Source: Candidatus Uhrbacteria bacterium
GTDB taxonomy: Bacteria > Patescibacteriota > Patescibacteriia > UBA9934
Assembly (NCBI GenBank): GCA_003518105.1
Contig: DOZH01000008.1
Location: 122,128-186,127, forward strand
Length of the DNA: 64,000 bases
Direction: 5' to 3'
The translations under genes and the position numbers were made by a program. The notes below the pieces were generated by a model that searched no databases, was not told the DNA's origin, and worked only from the letters and a program-made list of their open reading frames with translations. Positions 4,194 through 60,696 of the stretch are shown in pieces. Within the stretch, counting starts at the first letter, position 1; each line of letters opens with the position of its first letter.

Positions 4194-5555
4194 ATGAAAC
4201 GACTTCTTACCACCCTCGCCCTTAGCACGCTGGTTCTAACACCACTCAGTTCGGTGCTAGCTTTTGACCCTAATTATATAATTTCCGACGACGAACTAAC
4301 TAATCCCTTTGCCCTCGACCGTAACCAAATCCAGGCTTACCTAGACCGCGGCTACCTCGGAACCTATCGCACAGAAGATAATACCGGTGTCGTCCGTTAT
4401 GCCGCCGACATTATTTTGCGCGCAGCCCAAAGTGCTGGCGTCAGCCCGAAGTTCTTACTTGTGCTCTTACAAAAAGAACAAAGTTTAGTGGAGGACGACG
4501 CTCCGACTGACAATCAGCTCGATTGGGCTACCGGCTACGCTGTGTGCGACGACTGCTCTAAAGACGATGGCACCATTCAACGTTGGCGCGGTTTCGGTAA
4601 GCAGGTCAATTCCGCAGCGCTCCAGTTCAGCGAGGGCTACCTGGCGGATATTGCCGCCAATGGCAGCACACAAGGAAAATACGGACCAGATATTAAGGTG
4701 AAAATAGACAGCACAACCGTCACGCCAGTCAACGCCGCCACCGCCGCGCTTTATGCTTACACCCCGCACATTCACGGCAACGAAAATTTCGCCAGCATTT
4801 GGGACCGTTGGTTCGGTGCCAACTACCCTTCCGGTTCACTCTTGCAAGCAGCTGGCGAGGCTAACGTCTATTTGATTCAGAACGGTTACAAGCGGCTAAT
4901 CACGAGCTATAGCGCACTTACTTCACGTTTTAATGCGAACCTAATTGTGCAGGTTAGCAAGACCATTCTCAACAATCACCCTGATGGTTCCCCGATCAGC
5001 TTCCCTAACTATTCACTGTTAGAGGACGAGGAGAGTAACGTCTACCTACTGGTGGACGACAGTCTCCGTAAAATTGATAGTAATGAAACTTTTAAATCGA
5101 TCGGCTTTTCAAGCGACGAAATTGTGGGTATCACCAACGCTGAACGTGACGCCTACACCATGGGTAACAATATTACTAACGCCACGGTCGACCCAACCGG
5201 CAAGCTCTACCAATTAAAGTCGAACAAGGCTGTGTACTATGTTCGCGATGGTATCCGCCAGGTGATTGTGGACCCAGCTATTCTCACCGCCCGCTTCCCC
5301 AACGAGCAACCAACGCCAGTTGACTCAGTAGTTATCGAGCAATACAAAGAAGGCAAAGCGCTACTCTTGCCCGACGGTAACCTAGTCAAAGGCGTGCTCG
5401 ATCCCACAGTCTATGTCATCACTGACGGTATGCGTCGCGCTATTGATTCCGAGGCCACCTTCCACAGCTTTGGTTGGTCTTTCAGTCATGTATTGACCAT
5501 TAACGACGAAGCCCTCGCCCTGCACCCCCTCGGCGCAGATCTAACTTCGGAATAA
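4194..5555 (+). CDS. secreted hypothetical protein (453 aa) with an N-terminal signal peptide
   Basis: ORF track entry. The N-terminus MKRLLTTLALSTLVLTPLSSVLA is hydrophobic. No family was recognised. Confidence 0.55.
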   Translation: MKRLLTTLALSTLVLTPLSSVLAFDPNYIISDDELTNPFALDRNQIQAYLDRGYLGTYRTEDNTGVVRYAADIILRAAQSAGVSPKFLLVLLQKEQSLVEDDAPTDNQLDWATGYAVCDDCSKDDGTIQRWRGFGKQVNSAALQFSEGYLADIAANGSTQGKYGPDIKVKIDSTTVTPVNAATAALYAYTPHIHGNENFASIWDRWFGANYPSGSLLQAAGEANVYLIQNGYKRLITSYSALTSRFNANLIVQVSKTILNNHPDGSPISFPNYSLLEDEESNVYLLVDDSLRKIDSNETFKSIGFSSDEIVGITNAERDAYTMGNNITNATVDPTGKLYQLKSNKAVYYVRDGIRQVIVDPAILTARFPNEQPTPVDSVVIEQYKEGKALLLPDGNLVKGVLDPTVYVITDGMRRAIDSEATFHSFGWSFSHVLTINDEALALHPLGADLTSE

Positions 5556-5556
5556 T

Positions 5557-6348
5557 ATGATTGTTTTCGCAGCGCATGTTCCTAATTCTCCACTACTATT
5601 ACCGTCTATCAGCGGTGACCGGATTGGAGCAGTCAAAAAAACCTGCGCTGCCATGGACCAGTTGGCCGATGAGTTGTACGCCACCAAGCCAGATACCATC
5701 GTGCTAATTAGCGATCAACCCACGCGTTACAGCGAGGCCTTCTCCATTTCCGTCAGTGATCCTTATGCTGCAGACCTAGCGAACGTGGGCGACTTGAGCT
5801 ACAAACAAACTTATCATCCTGATTTCGGTTTAATCGACGCCTTGCAGCGCGCCTTACGCAAGTTCGACGAAGCCGTAACCCTAACAACTGACCCACATCT
5901 CAACTTCGCCGCCGCTATCCCGCTTGACTTACTCACCGAACACTTACCAAACATCCGCGTCGTACCAATCAGCCCGTGCGACCTGGACCCCAAGGCTCAC
6001 TTTACCTTTGGCCAATCCCTCAAACACACGCTCGTTGAGAGCAAAAAACGCATCGCCGTTATTTCCGCGGGTGACCTGGCTCATACTTTAACAGACTTTG
6101 CTCCAGGCGGCCTTCACACAAGCGGCGCCGAATACGACGACGCCTTATTGACGCTACTCGAACAGCACAACGTGGTCGGCCTCTTGCAAATTGAGGAAAA
6201 GCTTCGTCACGAGGCTCAAGAGTCAGCCTATTTCAAACTACTCATTCTACTTGGCGTTCTCGACGGCATGCCTGTATTAACCAATTTGTTAAGTTACGAG
6301 TACCCTTTCGGGGTTGGCCTGGCTGTGGTAAATTTCATTTTAGAGTAG
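5557..6348 (+). CDS. LigB/YgiD-type class III extradiol dioxygenase-like protein (263 aa)
   Basis: FAAHVPNSP near the N-terminus and SAGDLAHTL later resemble the His-containing motifs of YgiD/DODA/MEMO-like proteins. This is a weak, by-eye call. Confidence 0.4.
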   Translation: MIVFAAHVPNSPLLLPSISGDRIGAVKKTCAAMDQLADELYATKPDTIVLISDQPTRYSEAFSISVSDPYAADLANVGDLSYKQTYHPDFGLIDALQRALRKFDEAVTLTTDPHLNFAAAIPLDLLTEHLPNIRVVPISPCDLDPKAHFTFGQSLKHTLVESKKRIAVISAGDLAHTLTDFAPGGLHTSGAEYDDALLTLLEQHNVVGLLQIEEKLRHEAQESAYFKLLILLGVLDGMPVLTNLLSYEYPFGVGLAVVNFILE

Positions 6349-6352
6349 GTAG

Positions 6353-8212
6353 TTGGTAGTTATGTTCCTCCGAGTTTACCCCATTTTACGATTGCCGCGG
6401 CGATTCGGCGTCTTTGATTATGAGTTACCGGAGGGACTGAGCGTCTCGCCCGGTGACTTGGTGCACGTGCCATTTCATAATCGGGTTATCCTGGCGGTAG
6501 CGGTGGCTTTGACCGAGGTGACAGAGGTGCGGAGCAAACTAGCCCAAGCAATAGACGTCGCCTTCCCGCGGGCCTTAGCCAAGGCCGACATTGACCGCTT
6601 AGTGAATCTGGCCCAAACAATTGCGCAGTCACCTTCCACTATTTTTTTATCTTCATTCGGGGTACTGAAAAATGAGCAATCCGCGCCACGTCTAGTGTCG
6701 CAAAATAACATGCAACTTTCACTACCAAGAGACCTGGTGGAGCAGTTACAGCAAATCGTTAAATTAATAAAGCCAAGTGCGGCAGGACCCGACGAACTAT
6801 GGTCCCCAAGCCTTGGCGATGTACCTCAGACTGATATTGTCTGCCAATTGGGCACCGAAGCCTCGTTCGCCCTAGCCAAACTTCTTCGTCAAAGAACAAA
6901 AGGACAGATGCTCATCATCATGCCCCGCGAACGGGATGTCGAGCTGCTTGGTCGGCTGATCGATCTTGGGAAGAGCACAGCCACACTCCACGGCCACACC
7001 AAACCGTACGAGCGTGAAAAGATTATTCATGCCTGGCGGACTGGCCGGCTGCAAACTTTAATTGGAACGTTGCAGGCCACACTTATTCCAGCGCATAAAA
7101 TCGACACTGTTCTCCTCATGAGCACTGGCACGGATGACCATTTCTCCGACCGTCGTAACCCCAGGCTCGATAACAGACTGTGCGCCGAGGCTCAGGCCCG
7201 GCAGCACGGTGCATTGTTTGTGACCACGGATTATCTGCCGCGTCCTGAGGAGATTGCTTTAACCACTACCCCGCTACCCTGCTACGCCCCTACCCCGCTT
7301 GATCTCAGCGTCGTCGATTTACGTAAACCAGACGAGCAAACGGCCACGCAATTACTGAGCGAAACGCTGCTAGCTGAGGTAAATAATGCTTTACAAAGCC
7401 AAAAAAAGGTGCTACTTTTCTATAACCGCAAAGGCGTTGCCAAGCGAGTTGTTTGCTCTAGCTGCAGCGCCATGGTGGTTTGCCCAACTTGCGGCAACGT
7501 TCCGTCCATTCGGCCGCCAATGGCCAACTGCTTACGCTGCGGCCACATCTGGCCCATTCCTGAAAAGTGTGGGGCCTGCCAAGTAGGCCACCTTAGCCTC
7601 AAAGGCATTGGCAACGCTCACTTGGAAAAGGCCCTGGTCGCCCTGTTCCCCACTTACACCGTGGGCCGCGTGGAGAAGAACCACACGGAAGGACGGCAGG
7701 CGCAAATTCAGTTGGTGACCGAGTATTTCTTTTCCAGCTTGGTCGAGCCGTTCGCGCGTAAAGAATATGGGCTGGTGGCCGACCTGGCTGCGGATCTTTC
7801 GCTCAACCCCGAGAATTTTCGGGCGGAAGAGGAGACAGCGCGCAAACTGCATCGACTAGCAAGTTTCGGCAAACAGCAAAACGCCACAGTCGTCGTCCAA
7901 ACCTGGCTACCGGATCTCATCGACGCGATGAAGAACGCCGCAGTCTGGCTAGAGAACGAAACGGCCACCCGGCAAAATTACGGCTTACCACCGTTCGCTG
8001 CCCAGGTGACGGTTCGCCACATTGATTCTGCTGCCTTAATTGCCGTGACTAACCAGACCTTCGTCGACGTACCTGAAAAGCTTGAAGCGATCGGGCGAAT
8101 TCCGTACAATAAGCTGGACGAAATTATTGCCACTTTAGCCACCCTGCCCGATACCGCTGTAATTTCTATTGATCGCACCTATGTCAGCCCTAACAGTCCT
8201 CTGCAATCCTAA
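6353..8212 (+). CDS. priA: primosomal protein N' (PriA)-like, with degenerate helicase motifs
   Basis: PriA-like N-terminal DNA-binding region (FDYELPEGLSVSPGDLVHVPF) and a Cys-rich zinc ribbon (CSSCS..CPTCG..CLRCG..CGAC). No canonical Walker A or DExH motif was found; STGTDDHF sits where DEEH is expected. Confidence 0.6.
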   Translation: MVVMFLRVYPILRLPRRFGVFDYELPEGLSVSPGDLVHVPFHNRVILAVAVALTEVTEVRSKLAQAIDVAFPRALAKADIDRLVNLAQTIAQSPSTIFLSSFGVLKNEQSAPRLVSQNNMQLSLPRDLVEQLQQIVKLIKPSAAGPDELWSPSLGDVPQTDIVCQLGTEASFALAKLLRQRTKGQMLIIMPRERDVELLGRLIDLGKSTATLHGHTKPYEREKIIHAWRTGRLQTLIGTLQATLIPAHKIDTVLLMSTGTDDHFSDRRNPRLDNRLCAEAQARQHGALFVTTDYLPRPEEIALTTTPLPCYAPTPLDLSVVDLRKPDEQTATQLLSETLLAEVNNALQSQKKVLLFYNRKGVAKRVVCSSCSAMVVCPTCGNVPSIRPPMANCLRCGHIWPIPEKCGACQVGHLSLKGIGNAHLEKALVALFPTYTVGRVEKNHTEGRQAQIQLVTEYFFSSLVEPFARKEYGLVADLAADLSLNPENFRAEEETARKLHRLASFGKQQNATVVVQTWLPDLIDAMKNAAVWLENETATRQNYGLPPFAAQVTVRHIDSAALIAVTNQTFVDVPEKLEAIGRIPYNKLDEIIATLATLPDTAVISIDRTYVSPNSPLQS

Positions 8213-8660
8213 TCCTGAACTCCGTGTACTCTCCGAAGCTTTAAGCGACGAGGATATTTTGCTGCCGCATACCCAAAAATTGATTGACGACATGATTGTC
8301 ACCATGCAGGTAGAAGACGGCGTTGGTTTGGCGGCTCCACAAGTTGGCGCTCACCTGCGTATTATTATTGCTGAGACGCCCCACGGCAACGAGGCTTTTA
8401 TTAACCCAGTCATCACCTCGCGCTCAGTGCGCCTGGTGCCAAGCACCGAAGGCTGCCTCTCTGTGCCCGGTATGTCAGGCACCGTTAAGCGTAATTCCAG
8501 CGTAAAGGTGACGGCCAAGAACAGACTAGGCGAAACGGTCGACATTAAAGCTAACGGCTTGCTGGCGATTATCTTCCAGCACGAGATTGACCACTTGGAC
8601 GGTATTCTGTTCATTGATCGCGCGGACAAGGTTTATACCGATGCTAAGTCGCGCTTATAA
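8181..8660 (+). CDS. def: peptide deformylase
   Basis: The motifs GLAAPQVG, EGCLSVPG and QHEIDHLDG. The ORF-track frame begins at 8169; 8181 (MSALTVL) is the more plausible start. Confidence 0.9.
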   Translation: MSALTVLCNPNPELRVLSEALSDEDILLPHTQKLIDDMIVTMQVEDGVGLAAPQVGAHLRIIIAETPHGNEAFINPVITSRSVRLVPSTEGCLSVPGMSGTVKRNSSVKVTAKNRLGETVDIKANGLLAIIFQHEIDHLDGILFIDRADKVYTDAKSRL

Positions 8661-9573
8661 TGTGAAAATAATTTTCTTCGGTACGCCGCAATTCTCTGCA
8701 GACTTTTTGCAAGGACTCATGAATGAGTCGGAGTTTGAGGTGGTTGGCGTGGTTTGTCAGCCGGACGAACCACTCGGCCGTAAAAAGATTTTGACCGCAC
8801 CACCCACTAAACAGCTAGCTCTGTCTCACAATATCCCAGTCTTCCAACCAACCAAGCTCAAGGACGAAGCCTTTATTGAATCTCTGCGCCAACTTAACGC
8901 CGACGCTTTTGTAGTCGTTTCCTACGGTCGCATTATCCCGCAAATCGTGCTCGACTTGCCCAAGCTCGGCGTAATCAACGTCCACCCGTCACTATTGCCA
9001 AAATATCGCGGCCCATCCCCCATGCAATCCGCAATCGCAGCTGGTGAGACGGAAACTGGTATTTCGATAATGAAACTCGACGCTCTCATGGACCACGGGC
9101 CAATCTTGGCGCAAACGAAGTTATCAATTACTCCACAGACCACCAGCGAATCGCTGATGGCCGAAGTAGTCGCTACTGGCGTGCCTCTATTAATTGAAAC
9201 TCTCAAAAAGTTTACTCTCGGCGAAATTACCCCAACCGAACAAGATCACGCTAGCGCCACTATCTGTTCCCTGCTTTCTCGCGCCGACGGTATCATCGAC
9301 TGGTCGCAACCAGCCGAAGTTATCTACGCTCATGTTCGCGGCTTGAATCCCTGGCCTGGGACGTCGACTCATGATTTAAAAATTTTCTCGGTCAAAATTA
9401 CAGCACAAGAATTGCCACCGGGCCAGGTCTTGATTCAGGGCAACCGGCTGTTTATCGGCACCGGTTCCTCCGCTTTGGAAATTATCGAAATCCAGCCCAC
9501 CGCTGGTAAACGCATGCCTACCGCCGCTTTCATTGCTGGGCACCGTGAGTTGAGTGGTACGAGTCTCCTGTAA
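8641..9573 (+). CDS. fmt: methionyl-tRNA formyltransferase
   Basis: N-terminal formyltransferase fold (KIIFFGTPQFS, VVCQPDEPLGRKK) and the HPSLLPKYRG motif. This is the classic def-fmt pair. The ATG at 8641 was preferred over the extended frame from 8587. Confidence 0.9.
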   Translation: MLSRAYNVKIIFFGTPQFSADFLQGLMNESEFEVVGVVCQPDEPLGRKKILTAPPTKQLALSHNIPVFQPTKLKDEAFIESLRQLNADAFVVVSYGRIIPQIVLDLPKLGVINVHPSLLPKYRGPSPMQSAIAAGETETGISIMKLDALMDHGPILAQTKLSITPQTTSESLMAEVVATGVPLLIETLKKFTLGEITPTEQDHASATICSLLSRADGIIDWSQPAEVIYAHVRGLNPWPGTSTHDLKIFSVKITAQELPPGQVLIQGNRLFIGTGSSALEIIEIQPTAGKRMPTAAFIAGHRELSGTSLL

Positions 9574-9631
9574 ACTTTTTAGTGAGCCTGTCAGGTGCGA
9601 GCGATGAGCCTTGGCAGGTGAACGAGTCAAT

Positions 9632-11389
9632 CTAAGGCAAAAATCCGCCAGCCTGGATACTCCACAATTTTTTATACGTCCCTTCGTGTTTAATTAATTC
9701 AGCGTGCGTGCCGGCGTCGATCACGTCGCCTTTTTCGATGACCACAATGCGGTCCATCTGCATAATCGTCGATAATCTGTGCGCGATAACGATGACAGTT
9801 TTACTCTTCATGAGCTCACTCAGGGCGTCTTGAATAAGAGCCTCGCTTTCGGAGTCCAAACTGCTTGTGGCCTCGTCGAGCACGAGAATGGGCGAGTTTT
9901 TAAGAATAGCCCTGGCGATAGCCACACGTTGACGTTCACCGCCGGAAAGCTTCACCCCCCGTTCACCGACTTTGGTGCTGTAGCCCAGTGGTAACTCCGC
10001 AATGAACTCGTGACAGTGCGCCTTCTTGCTGGCAGCAATCACCTCCTTATCGCTAGCCTCACGCCGGCCGTAACGGATGTTCTCCATGATGGTGCGGTGG
10101 AAGAGCAATGAGTCCTGCGGCACGAGCGAAACGAGCGAGCGCAAACTGTCCTGCGTCACTTTGCTGATATCCTGCCCGTCGATGGTAATACTACCCTTAG
10201 TGACATCAAAGAAGCGCATGAGTAGTTTGATAACAGTACTCTTTCCTGCTCCGCTCGGTCCAACAAAAGCAATTTTCTCACGAGCTTTTATATCAAGGTT
10301 CATATCCTCCATGATTGGACGATCGAGATTGTATCCGAAGGAGACGTTTTTAAAACTGATTTCACCTTTTTTGACTAAGAGTTTTTTAGCTCCACGCTTA
10401 TCCGTAATCTCAAAAGGCAATTCGAGGACGTCCACCATTTCCTTGGCGTCGGCAAAACCGTCGTAGAGATCACGAATGACCCGTCCGAAGTCGTACAGCC
10501 GCATGAACAAGGCCACAAGTGCCGTCTGAATGAGGGCAAAGTCGCCTAGCGTCATCTTTCCTTGCACATACAGGTTAATAGCCACATACATGGCCACGCC
10601 TTGTAACGCGAACATGAAGCCAGCTTGCACGCCGTCATTCACGCTACCCAAATTCCAGGTGAAGCTCACCATTTTACGCCAACGTGAATTTACTTCCCAG
10701 AACCTGGCGGCTTCGAACTTTTTTCCGACGAACTGCTGAATAGTTGTCGCATTACTCACGGCGTCGGCCAGCTTACCGCCTGATTCCGTGTCGAGCTCAG
10801 CGCGCACCAAGTCGTATTTAAGCTTCCAGCGAGCCACGATAATGTTGACGACCACGAACAAAACTGCCCAGCCGCTCAGAATTGCGGCAAACAATGGGCT
10901 ACGTAAATAGAAGATGACGATAGTACCAATAATGCTAATAAAAATCTGGACCAGCTTCCAGATGATTTGGTCCATGATGCGCTCGAAGGCGCGGCCGAAA
11001 CGATGGATTTTTTTGACCAGTGAACCGGCAAAGTTGTCGGTGAAAAAACGGTAGGAGTGATCGAGGAGGTGCTCGAAGGCCGTTTGCTCGAGGTCAATGA
11101 TGACGCGCGGCTGAATAAAGTTGTTAGTGACGTCGGCACAACGCTGCAAAAGCCACAGGCCAAAGTTAACGCCAACTATCCAAACCAGCACGCTAATCAA
11201 GGTCGACGCCAGGTCGGCACCAGTCTGACCTGTGGTGAACGCGTCAAAAAATTGCTTGTTGAGCAAGGCTGGCACCAAGTTAAGCAAGTTGAGGGCCACC
11301 AAAACAATAAGTAGAAACGCGAGCGCAACCGGATAACGCCTCACGTGTCGCCAGTAAACTTTTATTGTTGGGCCAATGGATAACGACAT
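9632..11389 (-). CDS. ABC exporter with fused permease and ATPase (MsbA/multidrug type, 585 aa)
   Basis: Six-helix transmembrane domain followed by an NBD with Walker A (GPSGAGKST), the signature LSGGERQR, and Walker B (ILVLDE). Confidence 0.9.
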   Translation of the reverse strand: MSLSIGPTIKVYWRHVRRYPVALAFLLIVLVALNLLNLVPALLNKQFFDAFTTGQTGADLASTLISVLVWIVGVNFGLWLLQRCADVTNNFIQPRVIIDLEQTAFEHLLDHSYRFFTDNFAGSLVKKIHRFGRAFERIMDQIIWKLVQIFISIIGTIVIFYLRSPLFAAILSGWAVLFVVVNIIVARWKLKYDLVRAELDTESGGKLADAVSNATTIQQFVGKKFEAARFWEVNSRWRKMVSFTWNLGSVNDGVQAGFMFALQGVAMYVAINLYVQGKMTLGDFALIQTALVALFMRLYDFGRVIRDLYDGFADAKEMVDVLELPFEITDKRGAKKLLVKKGEISFKNVSFGYNLDRPIMEDMNLDIKAREKIAFVGPSGAGKSTVIKLLMRFFDVTKGSITIDGQDISKVTQDSLRSLVSLVPQDSLLFHRTIMENIRYGRREASDKEVIAASKKAHCHEFIAELPLGYSTKVGERGVKLSGGERQRVAIARAILKNSPILVLDEATSSLDSESEALIQDALSELMKSKTVIVIAHRLSTIMQMDRIVVIEKGDVIDAGTHAELIKHEGTYKKLWSIQAGGFLP

Positions 11390-11405
11390 GGCCAGATTAT
11401 ACCAC

Positions 11406-11444
11406 AGGTGAATACCCCTGGTTTATACCCCAGGTGTATTCACC
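11406..11444. other. imperfect 15-16 bp inverted repeat in the intergenic region between two minus-strand genes
   Basis: AGGTGAATACCCCTGG, a TTTATA loop region, then CCAGGTGTATTCACC. Confidence 0.4.
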
Positions 11445-11452
11445 AATCCCTT

Positions 11453-12934
11453 CTACAATCCCTTCAACACCCGATAAATCTCCACCATCGCCCAAGTGTC
11501 GAGCGCGCAGTAGTCGAGCAAATCGCGTTTAATCTTCTCCTTATCACTGGCCGACGTCGACGCTAAGATGAGCTTCTCCCAACGCTCACTCGCCTGGTCG
11601 CCCTTGCTGATGTTCATCACACTGTAATTGAGCTCGGGAACGAGTACTGGCAAAACTTTTTTAATACTTGCACTCCCCTTAAAAGCCGGGTCGACGTAAT
11701 AGCCATCAGAAAAAATCGTCATCAAGTCGAACATCTTGTCATTAATTTCTTTCAAGAACGAGGCGTGCTCAGGATGCAGTTCAGCTAGCTTATCGTTACG
11801 CTGCTTCTCATAACTACTATACCAACTGATTACCGTCCCGTTAGGATCGAGGTCGAGCTTCATCCTTTCAATAAGTGGCAAGGTCAAATCACCCTCGGGC
11901 TCGGTGATGAGAAACTCACGATGCTCAATCTCCCCATCTGCTCCCATGATGTGGAGCGAGTATTGGAAAGGAATTTGCTCATACGCTCCAAAGCCGTCGA
12001 ACATGGGAATGGCACTCGAGTAGCCCTCGTAATCAAAGAACTGCAAAGGGAACACCAAGCCGCCGAGCGCCTCTTTAATGGCCCCATAGTCGATGATGGC
12101 CTTCCCGAGCACATAAGACTCATACTGCAACTTTTGCGCCGCATTCAAGTCTTCTGGATTGTGAATGTCCGTCAACGCCAACTCCCCCCGGTCCACCCAA
12201 TCAATCAACTTCTTCTTGCTCATGCCAATCCGGTTGAAATTGTGCACTGAATACTCGGGCACTTCAGGATTGGAATACGCAAAAGTGGAGCAGTGATTAC
12301 TCCTCCCCTCGTACACGCAAGCGCAACCCTTTTCCTCCGGCAACGTCAAACACTCCTTCATCTGCATCATCTCCCCCTTTACCTGCTCTTCCGCCGCCGT
12401 CACTTCACCCGTCAAATCAGATTCGATGAATAACTCACAATTCACCACCTTGCCATTTTTACGATATTCACGATTCAAATGAATGACGCCGGTCTTAACT
12501 ACTTTCACCCCACACGCCTCAATGACAATTTTCTGAAAAGCCAAGTCGTTGACGTGGTGATGCGGCACTTTACGCTTCACCTCATTCGTCGCTTTCACCT
12601 CCCATAACTCCCAACCGCCGAGCTCTACATTAAAACACAAAATATCCGCCCGTAAGTAAAATACGTCCTCCTGGAACGTCGCCTGAAAAATAGTCTTCTT
12701 CTCCTCCATGACCTTCTTAGTATCAATCACCGCTTGGCCATGATGTGATTCGACGAGCACGCCTTCTGGATAAAGGAGTCTACAAGCCGCCTCTGCCAAG
12801 TTACCATCCTCGATAATCTTCTTCTCAAAGTCGCTAAACTCCACATCTACAAATAACTCGGGCTTATGCTTACGCAGCCACAGGTTCTTGCGACAAAATG
12901 TATATTCCAGGTAATCGGTTTTGGTGATGAGCAT
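11453..12934 (-). CDS. PD-(D/E)XK nuclease-superfamily protein (DUF2779-like, 493 aa)
   Basis: A D..ELWEVK motif (ADILCFNVELGGWELWEVKATN) typical of RecB-like PD-(D/E)XK nucleases. Length and N-terminus resemble the DUF2779 family. This is a by-eye call. Confidence 0.45.
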   Translation of the reverse strand: MLITKTDYLEYTFCRKNLWLRKHKPELFVDVEFSDFEKKIIEDGNLAEAACRLLYPEGVLVESHHGQAVIDTKKVMEEKKTIFQATFQEDVFYLRADILCFNVELGGWELWEVKATNEVKRKVPHHHVNDLAFQKIVIEACGVKVVKTGVIHLNREYRKNGKVVNCELFIESDLTGEVTAAEEQVKGEMMQMKECLTLPEEKGCACVYEGRSNHCSTFAYSNPEVPEYSVHNFNRIGMSKKKLIDWVDRGELALTDIHNPEDLNAAQKLQYESYVLGKAIIDYGAIKEALGGLVFPLQFFDYEGYSSAIPMFDGFGAYEQIPFQYSLHIMGADGEIEHREFLITEPEGDLTLPLIERMKLDLDPNGTVISWYSSYEKQRNDKLAELHPEHASFLKEINDKMFDLMTIFSDGYYVDPAFKGSASIKKVLPVLVPELNYSVMNISKGDQASERWEKLILASTSASDKEKIKRDLLDYCALDTWAMVEIYRVLKGL

Positions 12935-53136: not shown

Positions 53137-54171
53137 ATGGCAGCTCTAAATTGGTCAGAACTTCCCCGCCCGATTATCGCCCTCTCACCGATGGCGGATA
53201 TGACCGACTCGGCTTTTTGTCGTGTGGTTCAGGAAGTGACTGACGCCGGGCAACCAACGCCATCACCTCTAGTAATGTTTAGAGAAATGGTCTCTGCCGA
53301 AGCAGTCGTCCGCGGTAACGATAAGACGCTCGGCATGACCGCCATTCATGAGGCAGAGCGCCCACTCGTCCAACAAATCTTTGGTAGCGATCCAGTAACA
53401 ATGGCCAAGGCCGCCAGCATGATTGAAGCTGAGCACCACCCTGAAGGTTTTGACATCAACATGGGCTGCCCGGTTTATAAAATCGTGCACAACTTTAACG
53501 GCGCTGCGCTCATGCAGAATGCAGAACTCGCCGGCAATATCGTTCGTGCCATGAAGGCCGCCATTACCGTGCCACTATCGGTCAAAATCCGCCTGGGCTG
53601 GAGCGAGCCGACTGAGTGCGTCGCTTTTGCCCAAGCCCTCGAAGCCGCCGGTGCTAACCTCATTACCGTTCATGGCCGCACCAAACTCCAGGGCTACAGT
53701 GGCGTAGCTGATTGGCGCCAGGTCGGTGAAGTAAAAAAAGCTGTTAGCATTCCCGTCCTCGTCAACGGCGACGTTCACACGGCGGAGAAAGTCGTCGAGG
53801 CTCTCAAACAAAGTAATGCCGACGGTGTGCTGATTGCCCGTGGGGCGCTCGGCAACCCCTGGATTTTTGCCCAGATTAATGAGGTGCTGGCCGGTTTGCC
53901 CGTCACGCCGATCACGATTGGCGAGCGTCTGCGCGTTGTCCGTCGCCATCTAAATCTTCACCTGGAGCAATACGGCGAAGCGTCCGTCCCCACCTTCCGC
54001 AAGCATTTGTCCTGGTATTTCAAAGGCTTACCTCATATGAAGGATTATAAGGAGGGTATGATGAAGGCCTCGACCAGAGTTGAACTCGAGACTATACTTG
54101 ACTCATTCCTGGCGGCGCATAACACTACCGACACTACCAGCTACCGACCAGACGTCATTACCAAGAAATAA
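53137..54171 (+). CDS. dus: tRNA-dihydrouridine synthase
   Basis: LSPMADMTDSAFC N-terminus, a TIM-barrel FMN site, and the catalytic Cys region. ATG at 53137. Confidence 0.85.
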   Translation: MAALNWSELPRPIIALSPMADMTDSAFCRVVQEVTDAGQPTPSPLVMFREMVSAEAVVRGNDKTLGMTAIHEAERPLVQQIFGSDPVTMAKAASMIEAEHHPEGFDINMGCPVYKIVHNFNGAALMQNAELAGNIVRAMKAAITVPLSVKIRLGWSEPTECVAFAQALEAAGANLITVHGRTKLQGYSGVADWRQVGEVKKAVSIPVLVNGDVHTAEKVVEALKQSNADGVLIARGALGNPWIFAQINEVLAGLPVTPITIGERLRVVRRHLNLHLEQYGEASVPTFRKHLSWYFKGLPHMKDYKEGMMKASTRVELETILDSFLAAHNTTDTTSYRPDVITKK

Positions 54172-54177
54172 CCAGTT

Positions 54178-55122
54178 ATGAAGCTCGGCATTCTGACATT
54201 TAGTAAGACCAAAAAGGCCCTAGCGGTCGGCACCCTTAGTATTGCCCGCGAAGCTAAAAAGCGTGGCCATGAGGTGACTTTCCTCTATAGCAACAACGTC
54301 GGCCTCGTTTTTGGCAACGGTAAGCGCATTACCTACGAAGGCCAAAGCATCACGCGGGCTGACTTCGACGTTATCCTAGTCCGCCCTGGCTTCACCGGCG
54401 ACCCGAGTATCAACGCCAGTATAATTAAACAATTTCAGCTAGCTGGTTTTTACGTCATCAATAACTACTTAGCTGTTTTCCGCGCCAAGAACAAAATCCG
54501 CACCATGCAAATGCTCGATCACTTTGGCGTGCCAGTGCCAAAAACTCTCGTCGTTGCTAACCCAGCGCAAATTGCCGTGGCTGCCACAGAGTTTACCTTC
54601 CCTGTCATTATTAAAACTATTTTTGGCACACACGGCACTGGCGTTTTCATTGCTGAGAGCATGCGTTCCCTCTCCCCTATCGTCGACTATTTAACCAAAA
54701 AAGAACGTGGCCCCATTAAGTTGCAGGAATATATTGCGGAGGCTAAAGGTAAGGACATTCGCGCGTTTGTCTGCGGCAAACGAATTGTCGCGGCCATGGA
54801 ACGTGTGGCCAAAGAAGGAGAGTTCCGGGCTAACTTTCACAAGGGCGGCAGCGTTGGCAGTGTGGAATTAACCAAGCTCGAGCAACAACTCGCCATCAAA
54901 GCCTCACAAATCCTCGGTCTCGATATCTCTGGCGTCGACATTCTCCGCACCAACACCGGACCCAAAATCATCGAAGTCAACAGCAACCCCGGCCTCGAAG
55001 GCATCAGCAAAGCCACCAACATCCCGGTTGCCGAAAAAGTCGTAGACTTCATTGAGCACCGCCTGGCGTCCGTGGGCCTGAAGCAGGCTAAGCCGTTACC
55101 GAAGCGGAGGATGATGGAGTAA
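54178..55122 (+). CDS. RimK-family ATP-grasp ligase (314 aa)
   Basis: ATP-grasp motifs (PVIIKTIFGTHGTGVF, EYI...KDIRAFVCG, IIEVNSNPGLEG). The C-terminal tail SVGLKQAKPLPKRRMME is duplicated at 57438-57493. Confidence 0.8.
   Translation: MKLGILTFSKTKKALAVGTLSIAREAKKRGHEVTFLYSNNVGLVFGNGKRITYEGQSITRADFDVILVRPGFTGDPSINASIIKQFQLAGFYVINNYLAVFRAKNKIRTMQMLDHFGVPVPKTLVVANPAQIAVAATEFTFPVIIKTIFGTHGTGVFIAESMRSLSPIVDYLTKKERGPIKLQEYIAEAKGKDIRAFVCGKRIVAAMERVAKEGEFRANFHKGGSVGSVELTKLEQQLAIKASQILGLDISGVDILRTNTGPKIIEVNSNPGLEGISKATNIPVAEKVVDFIEHRLASVGLKQAKPLPKRRMME
55066..55121 (+). repeat. direct repeat copy 1 (56 nt). Copy 2 lies at 57438-57493 and differs only at six synonymous positions.
   Basis: Both copies encode ASVGLKQAKPLPKRRMME in frame. 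The final 23 nt are identical. Confidence 0.85.
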
Positions 55123-55134
55123 TTAACGATTAAT

Positions 55135-57402
55135 TTAATTTTCAAACCAGGGCACCCTACTAGTGCCCTTTTTTGTTGTATATAAATAGACTGTCGCTAG
55201 CGACGGGAAGAGTGACTGCTGCTGAGGATCAGCAAAAGCAATATAGATTGAGTCTGCAAATGTGTTTTCAAGATACGGCTTCTCTAACATTCGCATGACA
55301 TAATATTGTTGAGCGCCTCGCACAACATCTTCGTTGACGCATCGTTTAGCTGCTTGTGCCTCCAGTTGTTTGGCGATGTCGACTTCACCCCACCAGTCAC
55401 TTGGTTTTTCATCTAATACTCGCTGCACTAATTCATGATTCATGCCCCATGTTTTCCAGAGTTCACTCAAGCGGATTGTTGCAAAACCATGTGTCGCTAA
55501 TAGTTCTGTAATTTCCTTGATATAGAAATCATAGTCTTGAGAGGCATAACCATTACTCTTAGCATGTTCGTCTGAGAGGACAAAAGTCATTTCAATTCCA
55601 GGTGCGTAAACGCGGCGAATACCTGCAATATAACTCAAGAGATTATTTAACATCTCATGATCTGCCGCATCAACGTGCCTTTTTGAGGAAGCACCCCAAA
55701 AACTAAAGCAGCTTATTGGTTTGCTAAGTTTTTGTGTCTTTTCGATATTATCGCGTAATAAGTCTTCAAGAAACGGCAAATCTCTTCGGTATTTATTTAA
55801 CGTCATTGCCGCTATTATCAGATCAACTTCAATTAAGATTATTTTTTTCGGCTGAGTAAGCTCATCTATATTATCTTTAACGATAAGACGATCTGTGGCA
55901 TTAGCTAGTTTGTTATAACCATATTCAATAAATTTCTCTAGACAGTATTCTCCCTCACGAGTTTTTATTTGATACTGTCGAAGCAATGATTTATCAAGCT
56001 GGCCAGTCGCACGAGCAGCAGCCACTTCCGCAACATCCCCTTCCTCCACTCTAAAATCAGTACCGACATTCATGCCAGCCCCGTTAGCGAAGGGTGCTTT
56101 ATCACGCCAGGCAATATAGTCTGGTAGAAAATTATCCGCTACTTTCCGCAATATATATTTAGTGATTAAATGAGAGTTGTCGTATTTAATTTTCAATCCA
56201 CCATCAATCTGCAGAGCCAAGTCGACAACCTCACGATCAAAAAATGGACTGCGAACTTCTACCGTGTGTTTCATGCTCATTCTGTCTAATCGTTGCAAGT
56301 GACCAGCATGAAGTGATTTTAACAGCATTAGGCAGCCTTCGTTAACTAAATACTGTGGCAGTTTGGCAAATTCATTATAGCCAGCGAACAGCTCGTCTGA
56401 TCCATCACCTACCAAAACAACTTTTAACCCAAGTTGATGCGCAGCCTGGGCACATAGGTCCAAGGCAAAAGACTGCCTAATAATTTGCGGTTCGTAAGTT
56501 TCTAGATGATAAATTACGCTATCCAGTTCAGCGGCGTAGTCGACGTCAGGATTAACGAGGTGATATTTATAACCACGTTCTTGGCAGAGACGTAACGCGA
56601 ATTGGTAATCCAGTGAGTCGGGGTAACCTAAAATTATCGCCGTAATATTAGAATGATACTTCGTAGCAATAGCCATCACTAAACTGCTATCAACTCCGCC
56701 TGATAATAAGACGCCAAGTGGCAGGTCTGTCTGTACACGTTTCTTCACTGCCTGGACTAGTGAATCTTCTAGTCGTCTAATTACAACCTGCTCGTCGCTC
56801 AAGGTATTACTAAATTTTAAAACGAAGTACTCGGTAAGTTTTCCGTTGAGGTAATAATGACCTGGTGGAAATTCGTGAATAGTCTCAATGTCTTCGAAGG
56901 AGGCTAGCTGTTTCATTTCTGAAGCAAAATAAAGCTGTCCCGTCGAATCGGTCGCGTAGTATAGTGGTTTGACGCCTAACGGATCGCGAGCAGCAAAAGT
57001 ATCTCCCGTTTTTGCATTATAAATAACAAAAGCAAACATTTCAGAATCTAGATGTTTGACTATCTCGACTCCATATTCCTCATAAAGGTGGGCTAGTACT
57101 TCAGTATCTGAGCTCGTGCGGAAAATATGCCCTTTGAGCTGCAGCTCGTCTTGAAGTTTTTGATAATTAAAAATTTCTCCATTTTGAACGGCGAAAATAG
57201 TATTATCCTCGTTTGCTTGTGGTTGTTTACCTAGTGCTCGGGCGACAATTGGCAAGCGGTTAGCACCTATCACCGCAGAAGGTAGGTATTTTAACTCATA
57301 CGTACTACTTCCGCGATGAGTAATTTTTTCGAGAGCCTGGTGGGCTCGTTCTTTTGGATTGTTGGTACCGAAGATACCGATAATTCCACACATATATACC
57401 AT
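55135..57402 (-). CDS. asparagine synthetase B-family amidotransferase (class II Ntn GATase plus PP-loop synthetase) with a C-terminal extension of about 290 aa of unknown function; AT-rich
   Basis: MCGIIGIFG N-terminal nucleophile, the SGGVDSS PP-loop, then more than 280 extra residues with no recognised motif. Confidence 0.75.
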   Translation of the reverse strand: MVYMCGIIGIFGTNNPKERAHQALEKITHRGSSTYELKYLPSAVIGANRLPIVARALGKQPQANEDNTIFAVQNGEIFNYQKLQDELQLKGHIFRTSSDTEVLAHLYEEYGVEIVKHLDSEMFAFVIYNAKTGDTFAARDPLGVKPLYYATDSTGQLYFASEMKQLASFEDIETIHEFPPGHYYLNGKLTEYFVLKFSNTLSDEQVVIRRLEDSLVQAVKKRVQTDLPLGVLLSGGVDSSLVMAIATKYHSNITAIILGYPDSLDYQFALRLCQERGYKYHLVNPDVDYAAELDSVIYHLETYEPQIIRQSFALDLCAQAAHQLGLKVVLVGDGSDELFAGYNEFAKLPQYLVNEGCLMLLKSLHAGHLQRLDRMSMKHTVEVRSPFFDREVVDLALQIDGGLKIKYDNSHLITKYILRKVADNFLPDYIAWRDKAPFANGAGMNVGTDFRVEEGDVAEVAAARATGQLDKSLLRQYQIKTREGEYCLEKFIEYGYNKLANATDRLIVKDNIDELTQPKKIILIEVDLIIAAMTLNKYRRDLPFLEDLLRDNIEKTQKLSKPISCFSFWGASSKRHVDAADHEMLNNLLSYIAGIRRVYAPGIEMTFVLSDEHAKSNGYASQDYDFYIKEITELLATHGFATIRLSELWKTWGMNHELVQRVLDEKPSDWWGEVDIAKQLEAQAAKRCVNEDVVRGAQQYYVMRMLEKPYLENTFADSIYIAFADPQQQSLFPSLATVYLYTTKKGTSRVPWFEN
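55150..55174 (+). terminator. rho-independent terminator for the RimK-like gene, lying inside the 3' end of the convergent AsnB-like CDS
   Basis: GGGCAC, a CCTACTA loop, GTGCCC, then T6. Confidence 0.6.
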
Positions 57403-57428
57403 TAATTATAACAGATAATGCAATTTAC

Positions 57429-57917
57429 ATGTATAGCGCCTCCGTCGGCCTCAAACAGGCCAAGCCGCTGCCGAAGCGGAGGATGATGGAGTACTCACAA
57501 TACATAAAAATCAGCCAGGAGGTTGATTCTTTGATAGTATTTGACAGAAATACTTTACTACAGTACAGTACTTGTTGTATGATGACTTTAATAGCTACAC
57601 AACGCGAACAAGAGCTCTGGAATGCAATTTTGAGTTTGCAGACCCCGTTGGAGTGCCAAAAATTTTTTGGTGATTTGCTGACAGCAGATGAGGTTGCTGA
57701 TTTTGCGAAGCGTTGGCAAGTGGCACGTATGCTTTATGCTGGTACCTCGTATGTTGTTATTCAAAAAGAAACCGCGCTGTCGAGCAGAACCATTGCGCGT
57801 ATTTCAAATTGGCTCAAAGAAGGAACCGGCGGCTATCGTTTGCTCTTAAAGCGCACCGATAATGTTAATTACCATCATACCGTTCTTGCGTCTCCTCGAC
57901 GTCGAACGGCTCATTGA
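57429..57917 (+). CDS. TrpR/YerC-YecD-family DNA-binding protein (162 aa in the ORF-track frame; the true start is uncertain)
   Basis: ELWNAILSLQTPLECQKFFGDLLTADEVADFAKRWQVARML..GTSY..I...T..SSRTIARISNWLKEG matches the YerC/TrpR-like signature. Confidence 0.6.
   Translation: MYSASVGLKQAKPLPKRRMMEYSQYIKISQEVDSLIVFDRNTLLQYSTCCMMTLIATQREQELWNAILSLQTPLECQKFFGDLLTADEVADFAKRWQVARMLYAGTSYVVIQKETALSSRTIARISNWLKEGTGGYRLLLKRTDNVNYHHTVLASPRRRTAH
57438..57493 (+). repeat. direct repeat copy 2, paired with copy 1 at 55066-55121
   Basis: It forms the in-frame 5' end of the ORF 57429-57917. Confidence 0.85.
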
Positions 57918-58080
57918 AGTTGCAAGATCTGCTCAATGATTCGCTCCGCATCGATGAGATGCTAGAGCGATTTTTTAATTTAAATATCATCGCCGGCTTC
58001 ATTTGTGCTTGATGAAGTATCGAGCTCAAGCAGGAACCGGAGAGATCATTCTCTGATTCTATTCACCTCAGGAGGTTCTC

Positions 58081-58722
58081 GTGGAAAAGATCATGCCCTA
58101 CCGTTCGCTTGTTCATGTACTTATTCTCGAGTGCGGAGAGCCTCTCGTCGTTTGCAATGAGGCGCGCGAGATTCTCTGGCAGTACGAGAAGGATGACATG
58201 AAGCCGTATCTTGGAGATCTAATGCTACTTCGTAAAGGAGCCCTGCAACGTCTTCGCAAGGCAGCTCGTCTCCTTAAAAAACTGCATCCAGAAGCACGAC
58301 TCTCCGTCGCCTACGCATACCGCCTTCGCCTCATTCAGGAACGATACTTCTGGAATCAGTTCAAGAAGTTTCGTGAGCAGTATTTGAATGAGTCCGAACT
58401 CGAGATTCGTGAACGTGCGCATATGTTCTGTGCGTCACCTGACGTCGCGGGACATCCGACGGGTGGTGCAGTTGACGTCACCATCTCCGGATTCGACATG
58501 GGATCCGCCATTGCAGATTTCAACAGCCCTTTGATTCGAACGTTCCATCCGGATTTGACGGCTGAACAGCGCGCGAATCGAGAACTGCTTCGTTGGATCA
58601 TGATGAAGGTTGGATTTGCTCCGTTCGATGGCGAATGGTGGCACTTCTCGTTCGGTGACCGTGAATGGGCTGCATACTATGGGAAACCGTGCGCGATCTA
58701 CAGTCAGATCGACTATCACTAA
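58081..58722 (+). CDS. VanX/DdpX-type D-Ala-D-Ala dipeptidase (peptidase M15D)
   Basis: SPDVAGHPTGGAVDV and EWWHF zinc-site motifs. Confidence 0.75.
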   Translation: MEKIMPYRSLVHVLILECGEPLVVCNEAREILWQYEKDDMKPYLGDLMLLRKGALQRLRKAARLLKKLHPEARLSVAYAYRLRLIQERYFWNQFKKFREQYLNESELEIRERAHMFCASPDVAGHPTGGAVDVTISGFDMGSAIADFNSPLIRTFHPDLTAEQRANRELLRWIMMKVGFAPFDGEWWHFSFGDREWAAYYGKPCAIYSQIDYH

Positions 58723-58803
58723 ACACGTACGTCCTCACTCTGCCGCATCTCTTCCCTCTTTGGGAATTGAGATGCGGCGCCCCTTATTCATGCTTCAAAC
58801 TTT

Positions 58804-59436
58804 ATGAACTTCTCCATCCCAAAATATCTCGCATTAGACATTGATAACACGCTTATTTTTGGCGCTGAGGCCGATGTATTTTACGGACGATACAAACGTG
58901 CATTAGAGACAGCATTTGCTCAAGAAATGAAGATTTCCATTGAACAAGCGCAAACGTGTCTCAACGCTTATCGAACAGCGTATGACGGACAAGGCGAGTT
59001 GGCGTTCGAAACATTTGGTATCTCTCAAACATGTGTTTACGATGCCTTTTGTACAGTGAATCCTGCTGGTACTTTGCCCATGATGAAGACGACGATTGCA
59101 ACAATAACTCGTCTCCTAAAATACACAAAACTCATAGCGATCACAGATGGACCCGTAGAACAGATTGATCGTATATTTACTGCGACAGGAATTCGACGAG
59201 AATGGTTTACAGAAATTATTGGCTGGGAGCGTGGAAAGGGGAAACCAAAGAACGGGTCATCGCGTATTTATGCAGACGTCATTGCGCGATACGGCATAGC
59301 ACCAGAAGAATTCATGATGGTTGGCGATGTTTATTCCATTGACGTTGAACCAGCGAGACAGATTGGAGCGAGGTCTGTGCATATTGGAAATTCGCCTGAA
59401 TCAATTGCAGACATTTCACTTCTTTCATTCACTTAA
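58804..59436 (+). CDS. HAD-superfamily hydrolase
   Basis: N-terminal LDIDNTL (DxDxT) and a C-terminal VGD Asp motif. Confidence 0.7.
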   Translation: MNFSIPKYLALDIDNTLIFGAEADVFYGRYKRALETAFAQEMKISIEQAQTCLNAYRTAYDGQGELAFETFGISQTCVYDAFCTVNPAGTLPMMKTTIATITRLLKYTKLIAITDGPVEQIDRIFTATGIRREWFTEIIGWERGKGKPKNGSSRIYADVIARYGIAPEEFMMVGDVYSIDVEPARQIGARSVHIGNSPESIADISLLSFT

Positions 59437-59445
59437 AACTTATTT

Positions 59446-60393
59446 ATGATCAACAAACCAACATCAGTGTGGATTGATACAGATCCGGGAAATGACGACA
59501 TGATGGCAATTCTGCTTCTTGCGCAAAATTCTTTAGTGAATATCCTTGGAGTATCGACAGTATTTGGCAATACGTCACTTCCAAAAGTAACAAGAAATGC
59601 TAAGTTTATTTTGGATTTGGCAAAACGAAATGACATTCCTCTTTTTGCAGGAGCAGAACAGCCATTGATTCGCGATCAGATTTGTGCGGACATTCATGGC
59701 GAAAGTGGGCTTGATGGCGTGACGCTAGTTGAAGAAGACTTAATGGTCGCTGATAAAGCGCAAGAGGCAATCATAAAAGCTCTTGAAGACGCGGAAGAAC
59801 CCATCACCATTCTGGCGCTTGGTCCGCTGACGAATATCGCGAAACTCTTTACTACTCGTCCTGATCTCATCAGCCGTGTTCAACGACTCGTCATAATGGG
59901 TGGAGCAATTACAGTTCCTGGAAACAAGAATCGTGTTGCGGAGTTTAATGTATTTTGTGATCCGGAAGCCGCGGAGAGCGTTTTTAATACTATCATTCCG
60001 AAGACGCTCATTCCGCTCGACCCCTGTACTAGCGTCGTCCTCACCGACCGAGACATTGCGTCACTTCCTAACAGAACTGTCGGCACGACGCTCAAACGTA
60101 TACTCAAGCCCTACATTGAAAACATTTGCATCTTTGAAGGCGTTCAGGGCGCCTTAATGTACGACCCCATCGCCGCTTATTACCTTCTCAATCCCGCCGC
60201 CTTCACTACAGTTCCCATGGACGTTCGCGTTGAAACCTCATCCAAAGGACTCACTTACGGTATGACCGTCGCCGAACGCCGTATCATTGCAGAACGTGTT
60301 TTCAATATGGATGTCGTCACAGAAGTGGATGCGAAACAGTTTATTTCAGCATTTCTTGCAGCTATAAAAGAAATGGATAAATGTGACGAGTAA
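59446..60393 (+). CDS. nucleoside hydrolase (IunH family)
   Basis: VWIDTDPGNDDMMAIL (DxDxxxDD) N-terminal calcium-site motif. Confidence 0.85.
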   Translation: MINKPTSVWIDTDPGNDDMMAILLLAQNSLVNILGVSTVFGNTSLPKVTRNAKFILDLAKRNDIPLFAGAEQPLIRDQICADIHGESGLDGVTLVEEDLMVADKAQEAIIKALEDAEEPITILALGPLTNIAKLFTTRPDLISRVQRLVIMGGAITVPGNKNRVAEFNVFCDPEAAESVFNTIIPKTLIPLDPCTSVVLTDRDIASLPNRTVGTTLKRILKPYIENICIFEGVQGALMYDPIAAYYLLNPAAFTTVPMDVRVETSSKGLTYGMTVAERRIIAERVFNMDVVTEVDAKQFISAFLAAIKEMDKCDE

Positions 60394-60593
60394 GCTTTTA
60401 CGAATGATGCGACGTGTATAGCGCCTCGTTCTCGCGAGTGAACTCGCTCCACTTCGACGCGATCCAAACTCTGCTAGATAATTCTTGAATAGTGTATGGC
60501 GGCACGCGTGTGGCGAGCGAGCTCGCCGCGCGAGGCCGCGATCCACGCCCGCAACGTGCTCCGCACGTTGGTCGACTTTGCCGACGAACCAAC

Positions 60594-60622: not shown

Positions 60623-60696
60623 TGGTTCCGGGACGTGGATTCGAACCACGGTACCCTCCTCCAGAGGGAGGTGTCCTGCCGCTAGACGATCCCGGA
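60623..60696 (-). tRNA. tRNA-Gln (anticodon CTG), 74 nt with an encoded CCA
   Basis: Manual cloverleaf: acceptor stem TCCGGGA/TCCCGGA, D arm GTCT-AGCGGCA-GGAC, anticodon stem-loop CCTCC-CTCTGGA-GGAGG, T arm CGTGG-TTCGAAT-CCACG, then A and CCA. Confidence 0.85.

Follow-up and report, generated by a model that had tools for sequence, protein, structure and literature searches.

A stretch of 64,000 nucleotides from Candidatus Uhrbacteria bacterium (GenBank assembly GCA_003518105.1, contig DOZH01000008.1, positions 122,128 to 186,127 of the forward strand; here called the window) harbors the genes rimK, asnB-like and yerC, and a direct repeat of 56 nt brackets the asnB-like gene. The gene rimK (54178-55122, plus strand) encodes an intact, full-length RimK-family ATP-grasp ligase of 314 aa with a conserved tail (Pfam RimK, 1.4e-52; TIGR00768, 223.7 bits, over the cut-off). 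Its functional last 18 codons plus the TA of the stop codon constitute copy 1 of the repeat (55066-55121, plus). Copy 2, a relic of a rimK 3' end, is located at 57438-57493 (plus), 2372 nt downstream when measured from start to start. An earlier analysis by eye of the letters alone (the sequence-only reading) had placed the repeat at these positions and had reported that its last 23 nt are identical; both observations were confirmed. The identical block (CCGAAGCGGAGGATGATGGAGTA; 55099-55121, partner 57471-57493, plus) forms the 3' end of either copy and did not occur elsewhere in the window even when 3 mismatches were allowed, and none was expected from shuffled sequences.

Copies 1 and 2 are identical at 49 of 56 positions and are translated into the same peptide, ASVGLKQAKPLPKRRMME. 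Their seven nucleotide differences fall into six codons and are all silent. The sequence-only reading was thus right about the silent character of the differences; it had counted six of them, all at third positions, whereas one alters the first base of a Leu codon (TTA versus CTG). When seven random substitutions were simulated, the peptide was kept in 30 of 2,000,000 cases (1.5e-5). The proportions of silent and non-silent differences (pS and pN) between the copies are 0.545 and 0, respectively.

The window derives from metagenome assemblies, and contigs of metagenome-assembled genomes (MAGs) can be chimeric, which would allow for a chimeric join or a collapsed repeat. However, the stretch from rimK to yerC (3.8 kb) is 100% identical in five contigs, which were obtained from different sequencing runs and by three assembly pipelines, and the longest exact identity between the copies (23 nt) is shorter than the assembly k-mers (k127, k141). 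Because of the five identical contigs the repeat is real and no assembly artefact, a concern that the sequence-only reading had raised itself. A tandem duplication in place with later divergence is ruled out as well, because an unused copy would not have collected silent changes alone (P ~1.5e-5). Together, artefact and in-place duplication have a practically negligible probability.

As described before, the stretch between the copies is AT-rich (GC 0.41, as compared to 0.52 in the core genes on its left side) and holds one gene only. This asnB-like gene (55135-57393, minus; GC 0.416) encodes 752 aa from an MCGIIG start with the Pfam domains GATase_7 and Asn_synthase and scores 341.9 bits against TIGR01536 (glutamine-hydrolysing asparagine synthase; cut-off 267.1). 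Orthologues with 78-79% identity are present at the same site in two related loci, L003 and L166. A hairpin terminator at 55149-55169, identified by a terminator scan on both strands (fold z -3.0 and -4.1), is common to the convergent genes rimK and asnB and is part of the cassette; homologous sequence is located directly 3' of the rimK stop codon in L003 and L166. A putative extended -10 promoter of asnB, TGTTATAAT (57405-57413, minus), was read by eye, not predicted by a tool, about 12 nt before the ATG and is kept in L003 (TGCTATAAT) and L166. Homology to the cassettes of L003 and L166 stops at about 57426, and a junction filler, CATGTATAGC plus C (57427-57437), separates this end from copy 2. 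No recombinase is encoded between the repeats, where the sole open reading frame is the asnB-like one with its Pfam domains GATase and Asn_synthase, and none in the interval from rimK to tRNA-Gln of the window, L166 and L003.

The AsnB-like protein carries a C-terminal extension of about 290 aa which gave only a weak match to DIT1_PvcA. Most of its thousands of relatives from candidate phyla radiation (CPR) bacteria and DPANN archaea comprise about 1028 aa, with an NMT1/THI5-like domain (PF09084) between the synthase and the C-terminal domain. The 755-aa form is rare, being found in the window, L003, L166, P0005 and a few proteins at 42-45% identity. A metagenome scan with the AsnB-like protein yielded 80 loci, none of them adjoining rimK, and is informative on domain architecture alone. 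PADLOC gave no match, hence no sign of a defence gene.

The RimK C-terminal tail (window 55066-55119, and the rimK ends of L001-L039) is rich in Lys and Arg and nearly always ends in M-x-E (RMME, KMIE, AMKE and similar). Since the tail is kept in kind across Uhrbacteria, its sequence suggests a function for the extreme C-terminus of this S6-glutamate-ligase homologue.

Copy 2 and the start of yerC

Both copies had been regarded as protein-coding. This is correct for copy 1; for copy 2 it applies mechanically only. An open reading frame of 162 codons (57429-57917; its peptide is written MYSASVGLKQAK...) contains copy 2, and the Trp_repressor/YerC domain begins at residue 61 of this frame. The true gene, coding for a YerC/YecD-family TrpR-like protein of 111 aa, is located at 57582-57917 (plus) and starts at codon 52 of the longer frame, leaving 57429-57581 as the part 5' of the true start. 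Residues 9-91 match TIGR02531 (1.6e-20) and cover positions 5-87 of the 88 of the model. In the related loci L036, L171 and L176, YerC comprises 111-112 aa and starts at the position of codon 52; a YerC beginning with the repeated peptide, as considered in the sequence-only reading, is not encoded there.

The order of elements after copy 2 is that found after the rimK stop codon of the close relative L001, namely a diverged spacer, a hairpin terminator, a promoter and ATGATG. The former rimK stop codon (57492-57494, plus), which is TAA in copy 1 and in all relatives, is now TAC. It is followed at 57505-57533 (plus) by a relic of the original rimK terminator hairpin (fold z -3.4), homologous to the hairpin after rimK in L001. 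A promoter scan identified the yerC promoter TTGACA-17-TACAGT at 57541-57569 (plus; 10/12 matches); this region is 94% identical to L001, and an equivalent promoter precedes yerC in L036. In L001, stop codons close the frame between the rimK stop and the yerC ATG, and the stretch is out of frame. Because the sequence downstream of copy 2 is homologous to the post-rimK region of L001, and because of the domain position, the model coverage and the YerC lengths in relatives, copy 2 is on comparative grounds a non-coding, orphaned rimK 3' end with its old terminator; it is located upstream of the yerC promoter and is no part of YerC. The open frame from copy 2 into yerC is incidental.

The sequence-only reading had also offered that ASVGLKQAKPLPKRRMME may be a functional module selected in two proteins, in which case the 162-aa frame would encode a real, N-terminally extended YerC. 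Indeed, the frame is open from ATG 57429 via copy 2 into yerC, copy 2 shows no amino-acid change, and the 162-aa product appears in public gene calls. However, the 111-aa form matches the full family model and is the form encoded by the relatives, copy 2 is separated from the real start by a conserved terminator hairpin and by the yerC promoter, the corresponding stretch of L001 is closed by stops, a second relic of this kind in L166 has stops and indels, and the silent-only pattern is fully explained by divergence within working rimK genes. A shared module is thus extremely improbable.

The sequence AGGAGG at 57517-57522 was rejected as a possible ribosome-binding site of a YerC start further upstream; it corresponds to loop and stem of the relic terminator hairpin kept with L001. 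The public gene calls (L080-L084) give a 162-aa Trp_repressor protein owing to the chance in-frame position of the relic, whereas the evidence supports the 111-aa protein from 57582. Furthermore, the -10 elements of yerC (57541-57584, plus) and asnB (57393-57413, minus) precede the ATG by just about 9-12 nt, and neither gene has a Shine-Dalgarno sequence. Since the -10 elements are this close and Shine-Dalgarno sequences are missing, both mRNAs are probably leaderless or nearly so.

The rimK to tRNA-Gln interval in related genomes

The closest loci belong to MAGs of Candidatus Uhrbacteria (Patescibacteria/CPR) that came from groundwater and similar habitats. Loci with RimK at least 88% identical were taken as a genus-level group, and the interval from the rimK stop codon to tRNA-Gln was compared. 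The gene order beta-CASP metallo-beta-lactamase (MBL)-dus-rimK is kept in about 35 Uhrbacteria loci, and the content 3' of rimK varies.

The site is empty in L001, whose RimK is 98% identical to that of the window and in which rimK, terminator and yerC follow each other directly. Window positions 53262-55133 and 57437-60377 align to the contiguous L001 segments 5084-6957 and 6888-9827; because these two overlap on L001, its positions 6888-6944 match both copies. The search for an empty site that the sequence-only reading had proposed was therefore successful: in L001, L171 and L176, rimK and its terminator are followed by yerC, an M15 peptidase, a HAD hydrolase, a nucleoside hydrolase and two more genes. 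The accessory island in the window (57531-60393, plus) consists of yerC, M15 peptidase, HAD hydrolase and nucleoside hydrolase; it is located after rimK in L001 and L036 and is absent from L031, L002 and L168. In these three loci tRNA-Gln(CTG), which forms the right border of the variable interval (60623-60696, minus, in the window), adjoins rimK directly; the interval is empty in L031 and L168, and empty with an inverted tRNA in L002.

A donor-like arrangement is present in L003, where rimK is followed by the same bidirectional terminator, the convergent asnB gene, a methyltransferase and further genes. L166, found via its AsnB homologue, is a second carrier with a relic. Here the order is rimK, terminator, asnB, promoter, directly a second rimK tail and then tRNA-Gln (plus), as compared to asnB, relic and yerC island in the window. 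A search of the own rimK tail against the own downstream sequence in 44 loci aligned 36 positions of the L166 relic to the tail with one mismatch (97%). The relic shares the L166-specific codons AAA CGA CGG with its own rimK tail, and TAA is kept. Its 5' part is decayed by three indels and in-frame stops, yet 27 nt still align colinearly to the rimK tail (P=0.002 versus shuffles). Downstream follows an L002-type context with promoter and tRNA-Gln on the plus strand and no yerC island. The relics of window and L166 begin near the same point of rimK, and roughly 10-13 nt of additional filler are present in the window. L166 was the sole positive among the relatives; no rimK-tail relic was detected in 40 other loci including L003.

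More distant relatives (RimK 81-85%) have other convergent genes after rimK. Further RimK variants added loci of the L001 and L031 types as well as convergent cargo of three other kinds; no new asnB carrier was among them. By this comparison the rimK-to-tRNA-Gln interval is a hot spot for gene-content change and for DNA exchange across species-level lineages.

Several observations concern the cargo of this interval. Between window (57531-60393) and L001 (6981-9846) the island shows a pS of 0.19-0.37, as compared to 0.51-0.53 for dus and rimK and 0.79 for the MBL gene. Because its silent divergence is lower than that of the core genes, the island is by this measure a more recent exchange between lineages. 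In L036 (RimK 71%) it lacks the M15 gene, and protein identity is 75-82%. At the far end of the post-rimK interval of L036, beside a copy of a GC-rich unit B (see below), a large serine recombinase of 451 aa is encoded (11247-12602), so some cargo may have arrived on true integrative elements. After its cassette, L003 (5592-9228) carries a methyltransferase like the MADS component mad2, two small proteins and a 606-aa ABC-type ATPase matching the models PDC-S06, LmuB and PrrC; judging from these matches, the interval can hold defence-like genes. At L003 7343-7422, ARAGORN calls an odd 80-nt tRNA-Val where other loci have tRNA-Gln. The tRNA-Gln(CTG) beside rimK, with a hairpin terminator, has one orientation in L002, L166, L006 and L011 and the other in the window, L001, L031, L004 and L008; by its orientations this small segment is one that has been inverted repeatedly.

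Origin of the two copies

Whole rimK of the window differs from that of L001 with a pS of 0.534 and a pN of 0.010 and from that of L031 with values of 0.534 and 0.022. The two copies within the window thus show the silent divergence of whole rimK between species, which is the result of the silent/non-silent comparison suggested by the sequence-only reading. Since the differences are exactly of the kind seen between rimK orthologues from two species in the genus, they mark the copies as sequences that diverged in two working rimK genes and were then brought together by recombination between lineages. One ancient insertion with divergence in place was also considered; it was rejected for the window since the differences are silent only (~1.5e-5), and it is possible for L166.

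We consider it probable that an asnB cassette with its own rimK end recombined into the rimK-yerC genome of this Uhrbacterium, a groundwater organism. The ancestor would have contained rimK, terminator and yerC, as L001 does today. The incoming DNA, from a related Uhrbacterium, would have comprised a rimK end, the bidirectional terminator and the convergent asnB-like gene with its promoter. One joint would be a homologous crossover, located within the rimK tail or upstream of it; the other would be illegitimate, at the 5-nt microhomology GCCTC, 56 nt before the resident rimK end. As an outcome rimK would end in the incoming tail (copy 1), and the resident tail, terminator and yerC would have been displaced 2372 bp downstream. 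This topology would fit homology-facilitated illegitimate recombination (HFIR) of a linear fragment or a Campbell-type single crossover of a circularised fragment. The identity of the incoming segment, the microhomology joint and the pathway, including uptake by natural transformation, are what we infer here. The insertion by recombination at the rimK 3' end, with one tail from a related donor, had been proposed before and is borne out by the empty site, the donor-like arrangement and the divergence of the copies (pS 0.55, pN 0).

At the left side, copy 1 and upstream rimK are homologous to rimK of every relative, which provides one homologous end. At the right side, the 13-mer TGTATAGCGCCTC (57430-57442) spans the border between filler and copy 2 and occurs elsewhere in the window once, at 60415-60427 (plus), where it forms the start of a GC-rich unit A. 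This start at 60415 reads TGTATAGC plus GCCTC and is consistent with a 5-nt microhomology, as read from the 13-mer of the window and not from the actual donor. Because the 13-mer recurs there, a joint at GCCTC and a parent with the cassette abutting unit A would be implied. Typical HFIR joints show a microhomology of 3-10 bp (PMC3240628), and one homologous crossover together with one microhomology joint would be the signature of HFIR. Alternatively, linear DNA can circularise and then integrate by a single crossover (PMC3240628), a path that would fit because it yields exactly the flanking duplication seen.

With respect to direction, copy 2 uses the codon preferred in the rimK body at five of the six differing codons and copy 1 at none. 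Copy 1 has four synonymous changes seen in no relative; copy 2 has no lineage-unique change. The 23-mer of the window is also the allele of L031 and L003, and L001, L002 and L166 differ from it at 2-3 sites. Copy 2 with the relic terminator is about 79% identical to L001, the same 56 nt of copy 1 80%, the dus-rimK segment 86% and the island from about 57530 on about 90%. Because of the codon preference of copy 2, the changes unique to copy 1, the identity of copy 2 to L001 and the different context of the L166 relic, we lean to asnB as the incoming part, although these sequence comparisons do not prove the direction.

A number of points weigh against this explanation or parts of it. HFIR products usually show a deletion of recipient DNA (PMC3240628), whereas compared to L001 nothing was lost from the window and 56 nt were duplicated instead; a single crossover of a circular intermediate would account for the duplication no less well than HFIR. 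No clear step marking a breakpoint inside rimK was found, either by sliding identity versus four relatives or by counts of lineage-unique sites. A cluster of window-unique third-position G at 55026-55083 is not significant given the post hoc choice of the interval; likewise, window-unique silent changes at 55026, 55056 and 55065, just upstream of copy 1, hint at a longer donor tract and are not significant. Window and L166 have 15 derived rimK sites in common, other pairs 13-24, i.e. homoplasy at saturated silent sites; cassette-linked rimK alleles common to the carriers were therefore rejected as no more frequent than homoplasy in other pairs. Natural competence in CPR has been shown only for Saccharibacteria (PMC10633639), and both competence and dependence on RecA are assumed for Uhrbacteria. 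Furthermore, in both carriers the relic equals the rimK tail of its own genome in its 3' part only; this match could stem from gene conversion, from a crossover within the stretch or from chance identity of alleles. The window relic is undecayed and the L166 relic decayed despite their similar start. Because decay differs in this way, a single ancestral event would be insufficient without later refresh or gene conversion, and one old event with refresh, spread of the cassette together with the relic, or independent events could each account for the two relics. Finally, the direction rests on few sites.

The same kind of event may instead have run in the reverse direction. In that case, the resident genome would have carried rimK, terminator, asnB, promoter, unit A, unit B and tRNA-Gln, and the incoming fragment would stem from an L001-like donor, reaching from 56 nt before the donor rimK end over the terminator into the island from yerC to the nucleoside hydrolase. 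The homologous crossover would be located at the right, in unit A, unit B or tRNA-Gln, and the illegitimate GCCTC joint at the left, where the resident unit A begins. Either direction requires both parental configurations; the position of the homologous crossover is the only difference. The 13-mer flanks exactly 57438/43-60414, with the filler read as the first bases of the resident unit A; an anchor of >200 nt at 93% identity is provided by units A and B together with tRNA; and the low pS of the island, compared with 0.51-0.79 for core genes, points to recent movement between lineages. However, the L166 relic occupies the same place with another downstream region and no yerC island, and two separate fragments each starting about 57 nt before a rimK stop would be unlikely; copy 2 and the relic terminator show the identity of about 79% to L001 and not that of the island; and the codon choice of copy 2, not that of copy 1, matches its own rimK body. 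The reverse event appears unlikely in view of these observations.

Units A and B share GTGTATRGCG as their first bases. Unit A (60411-60475) occurs in the window and L001 only, and its fold is no better than that of shuffled sequences. L001 contains an extra truncated unit B start (11040-11074, within 11040-11145), another recombination scar in the interval. Unit B (60489-60592, plus, with a terminator to 60622) is GC-rich and forms three hairpins followed by a bidirectional terminator beside tRNA-Gln. It is kept in L001, L003, L036, L011, L008 and L009 (RimK about 71% in the last four) and absent in the island-free loci L031, L002 and L168. RNAalifold gave 31 pairs, 8 of them with compensatory double changes (single-sequence z -6.5), and conserved U-G pairs favor the plus strand. 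A search of the GC-rich units against Rfam returned tRNA only and no match for unit B, which is a candidate new small RNA.

Known systems and biological meaning

The sequence-only reading had drawn a parallel to integration at tRNA 3' ends. This parallel holds for the topology; an integrase is absent, and one joint, at microhomology, looks illegitimate. A recombinase of the tyrosine or serine type acting in trans, with copies 1 and 2 as attL and attR around a 23-nt core, could account for direct repeats that share an identical 3' core and diverge in their 5' parts in both carriers, for a target gene restored by the end copy of the element and for occupied and empty sites among relatives, and a large serine recombinase does exist in the variable interval of L036. 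However, no recombinase gene is located between the repeats or between rimK and tRNA-Gln in any of the three asnB carriers, the segment consists solely of a single gene together with the promoter and terminator of that gene, the presumed core varies among L001, L002 and L166 while the identical stretch is longer in L166, the right joint with its filler and its microhomology to unit A points to illegitimate joining, and the L003 cassette lacks the second repeat. Site-specific integration is therefore very unlikely. Integrase islands at the 3' ends of tRNA, tmRNA or protein genes resemble the locus in having 3'-end direct repeats at both borders and a restored target, occupied and empty sites among relatives and a tRNA gene at the border; they differ from it by their integrase, whereas the cargo here is a single gene, the repeats are imperfect outside 23 nt, filler is present and one carrier has no second repeat. 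Because the defining integrase is absent, the locus was not filed with them.

HFIR, as described for Streptococcus pneumoniae, Acinetobacter baylyi and Pseudomonas stutzeri (PMC3240628), is alike in its one homologous end, in its illegitimate short joint (here putatively the 5-nt GCCTC) and in that foreign DNA of a few kb is acquired from a related donor with no need for a mobile-element enzyme. It differs by the usual deletion in the recipient, as opposed to a 56-nt duplication, and uptake and RecA dependence are assumed for Uhrbacteria. Campbell-type integration, known from non-replicating plasmids (PMC3240628), likewise produces an insert flanked by a direct duplication, leaves the target intact and is reversible via the repeats; here the homology would be just 56 nt at 87.5% (23 nt exact), near the lower limit of the RecA type, and a circular form was not observed. 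The displacement of C-terminal ends of Rhs proteins, contact-dependent inhibition (CDI) proteins and type VI secretion system (T6SS) effectors is similar in that a new 3' end comes in and the old end is displaced downstream as an orphan, and HFIR has been proposed as a mechanism for these loci, too (PMC5361080 and references therein). In those loci the displaced ends are different toxins whose immunity genes are kept, so that they serve variation, whereas here the same peptide of a housekeeping-type gene recurs and the payload is a separate convergent gene. Altogether, the locus is most aptly classed with HFIR or Campbell-type integration, as a product that arose naturally between related genomes.

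More tentatively, the asnB cassette could be a portable unit that is free of an integrase and guided by homology, with rimK 3'-end sequence on both sides, the working tail on one and the relic on the other. This possibility is doubtful; it would explain why a relic with a similar boundary occurs in different contexts in two of the three carriers, why the 3' part of each relic matches the own tail and why the empty sites of close relatives are clean. If true, any related genome could gain the cassette by ordinary double homologous recombination without damage to rimK and lose it precisely via the repeats.

The locus is a clear but ordinary new instance of a known process, with a mechanistically ordinary scar and no new mechanism. 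It also corrects an annotation, as the public 162-aa 'Trp repressor' is a 111-aa YerC-like protein behind a gene relic. A silent-only difference between nearby copies is a marker of recombination between lineages and not of a shared functional peptide. The case presents the states before and after a gene gain as well as a donor-like state in an uncultivated CPR bacterium, and it indicates that Uhrbacteria exchange DNA across species-level lineages by recombination without a mobile-element enzyme.

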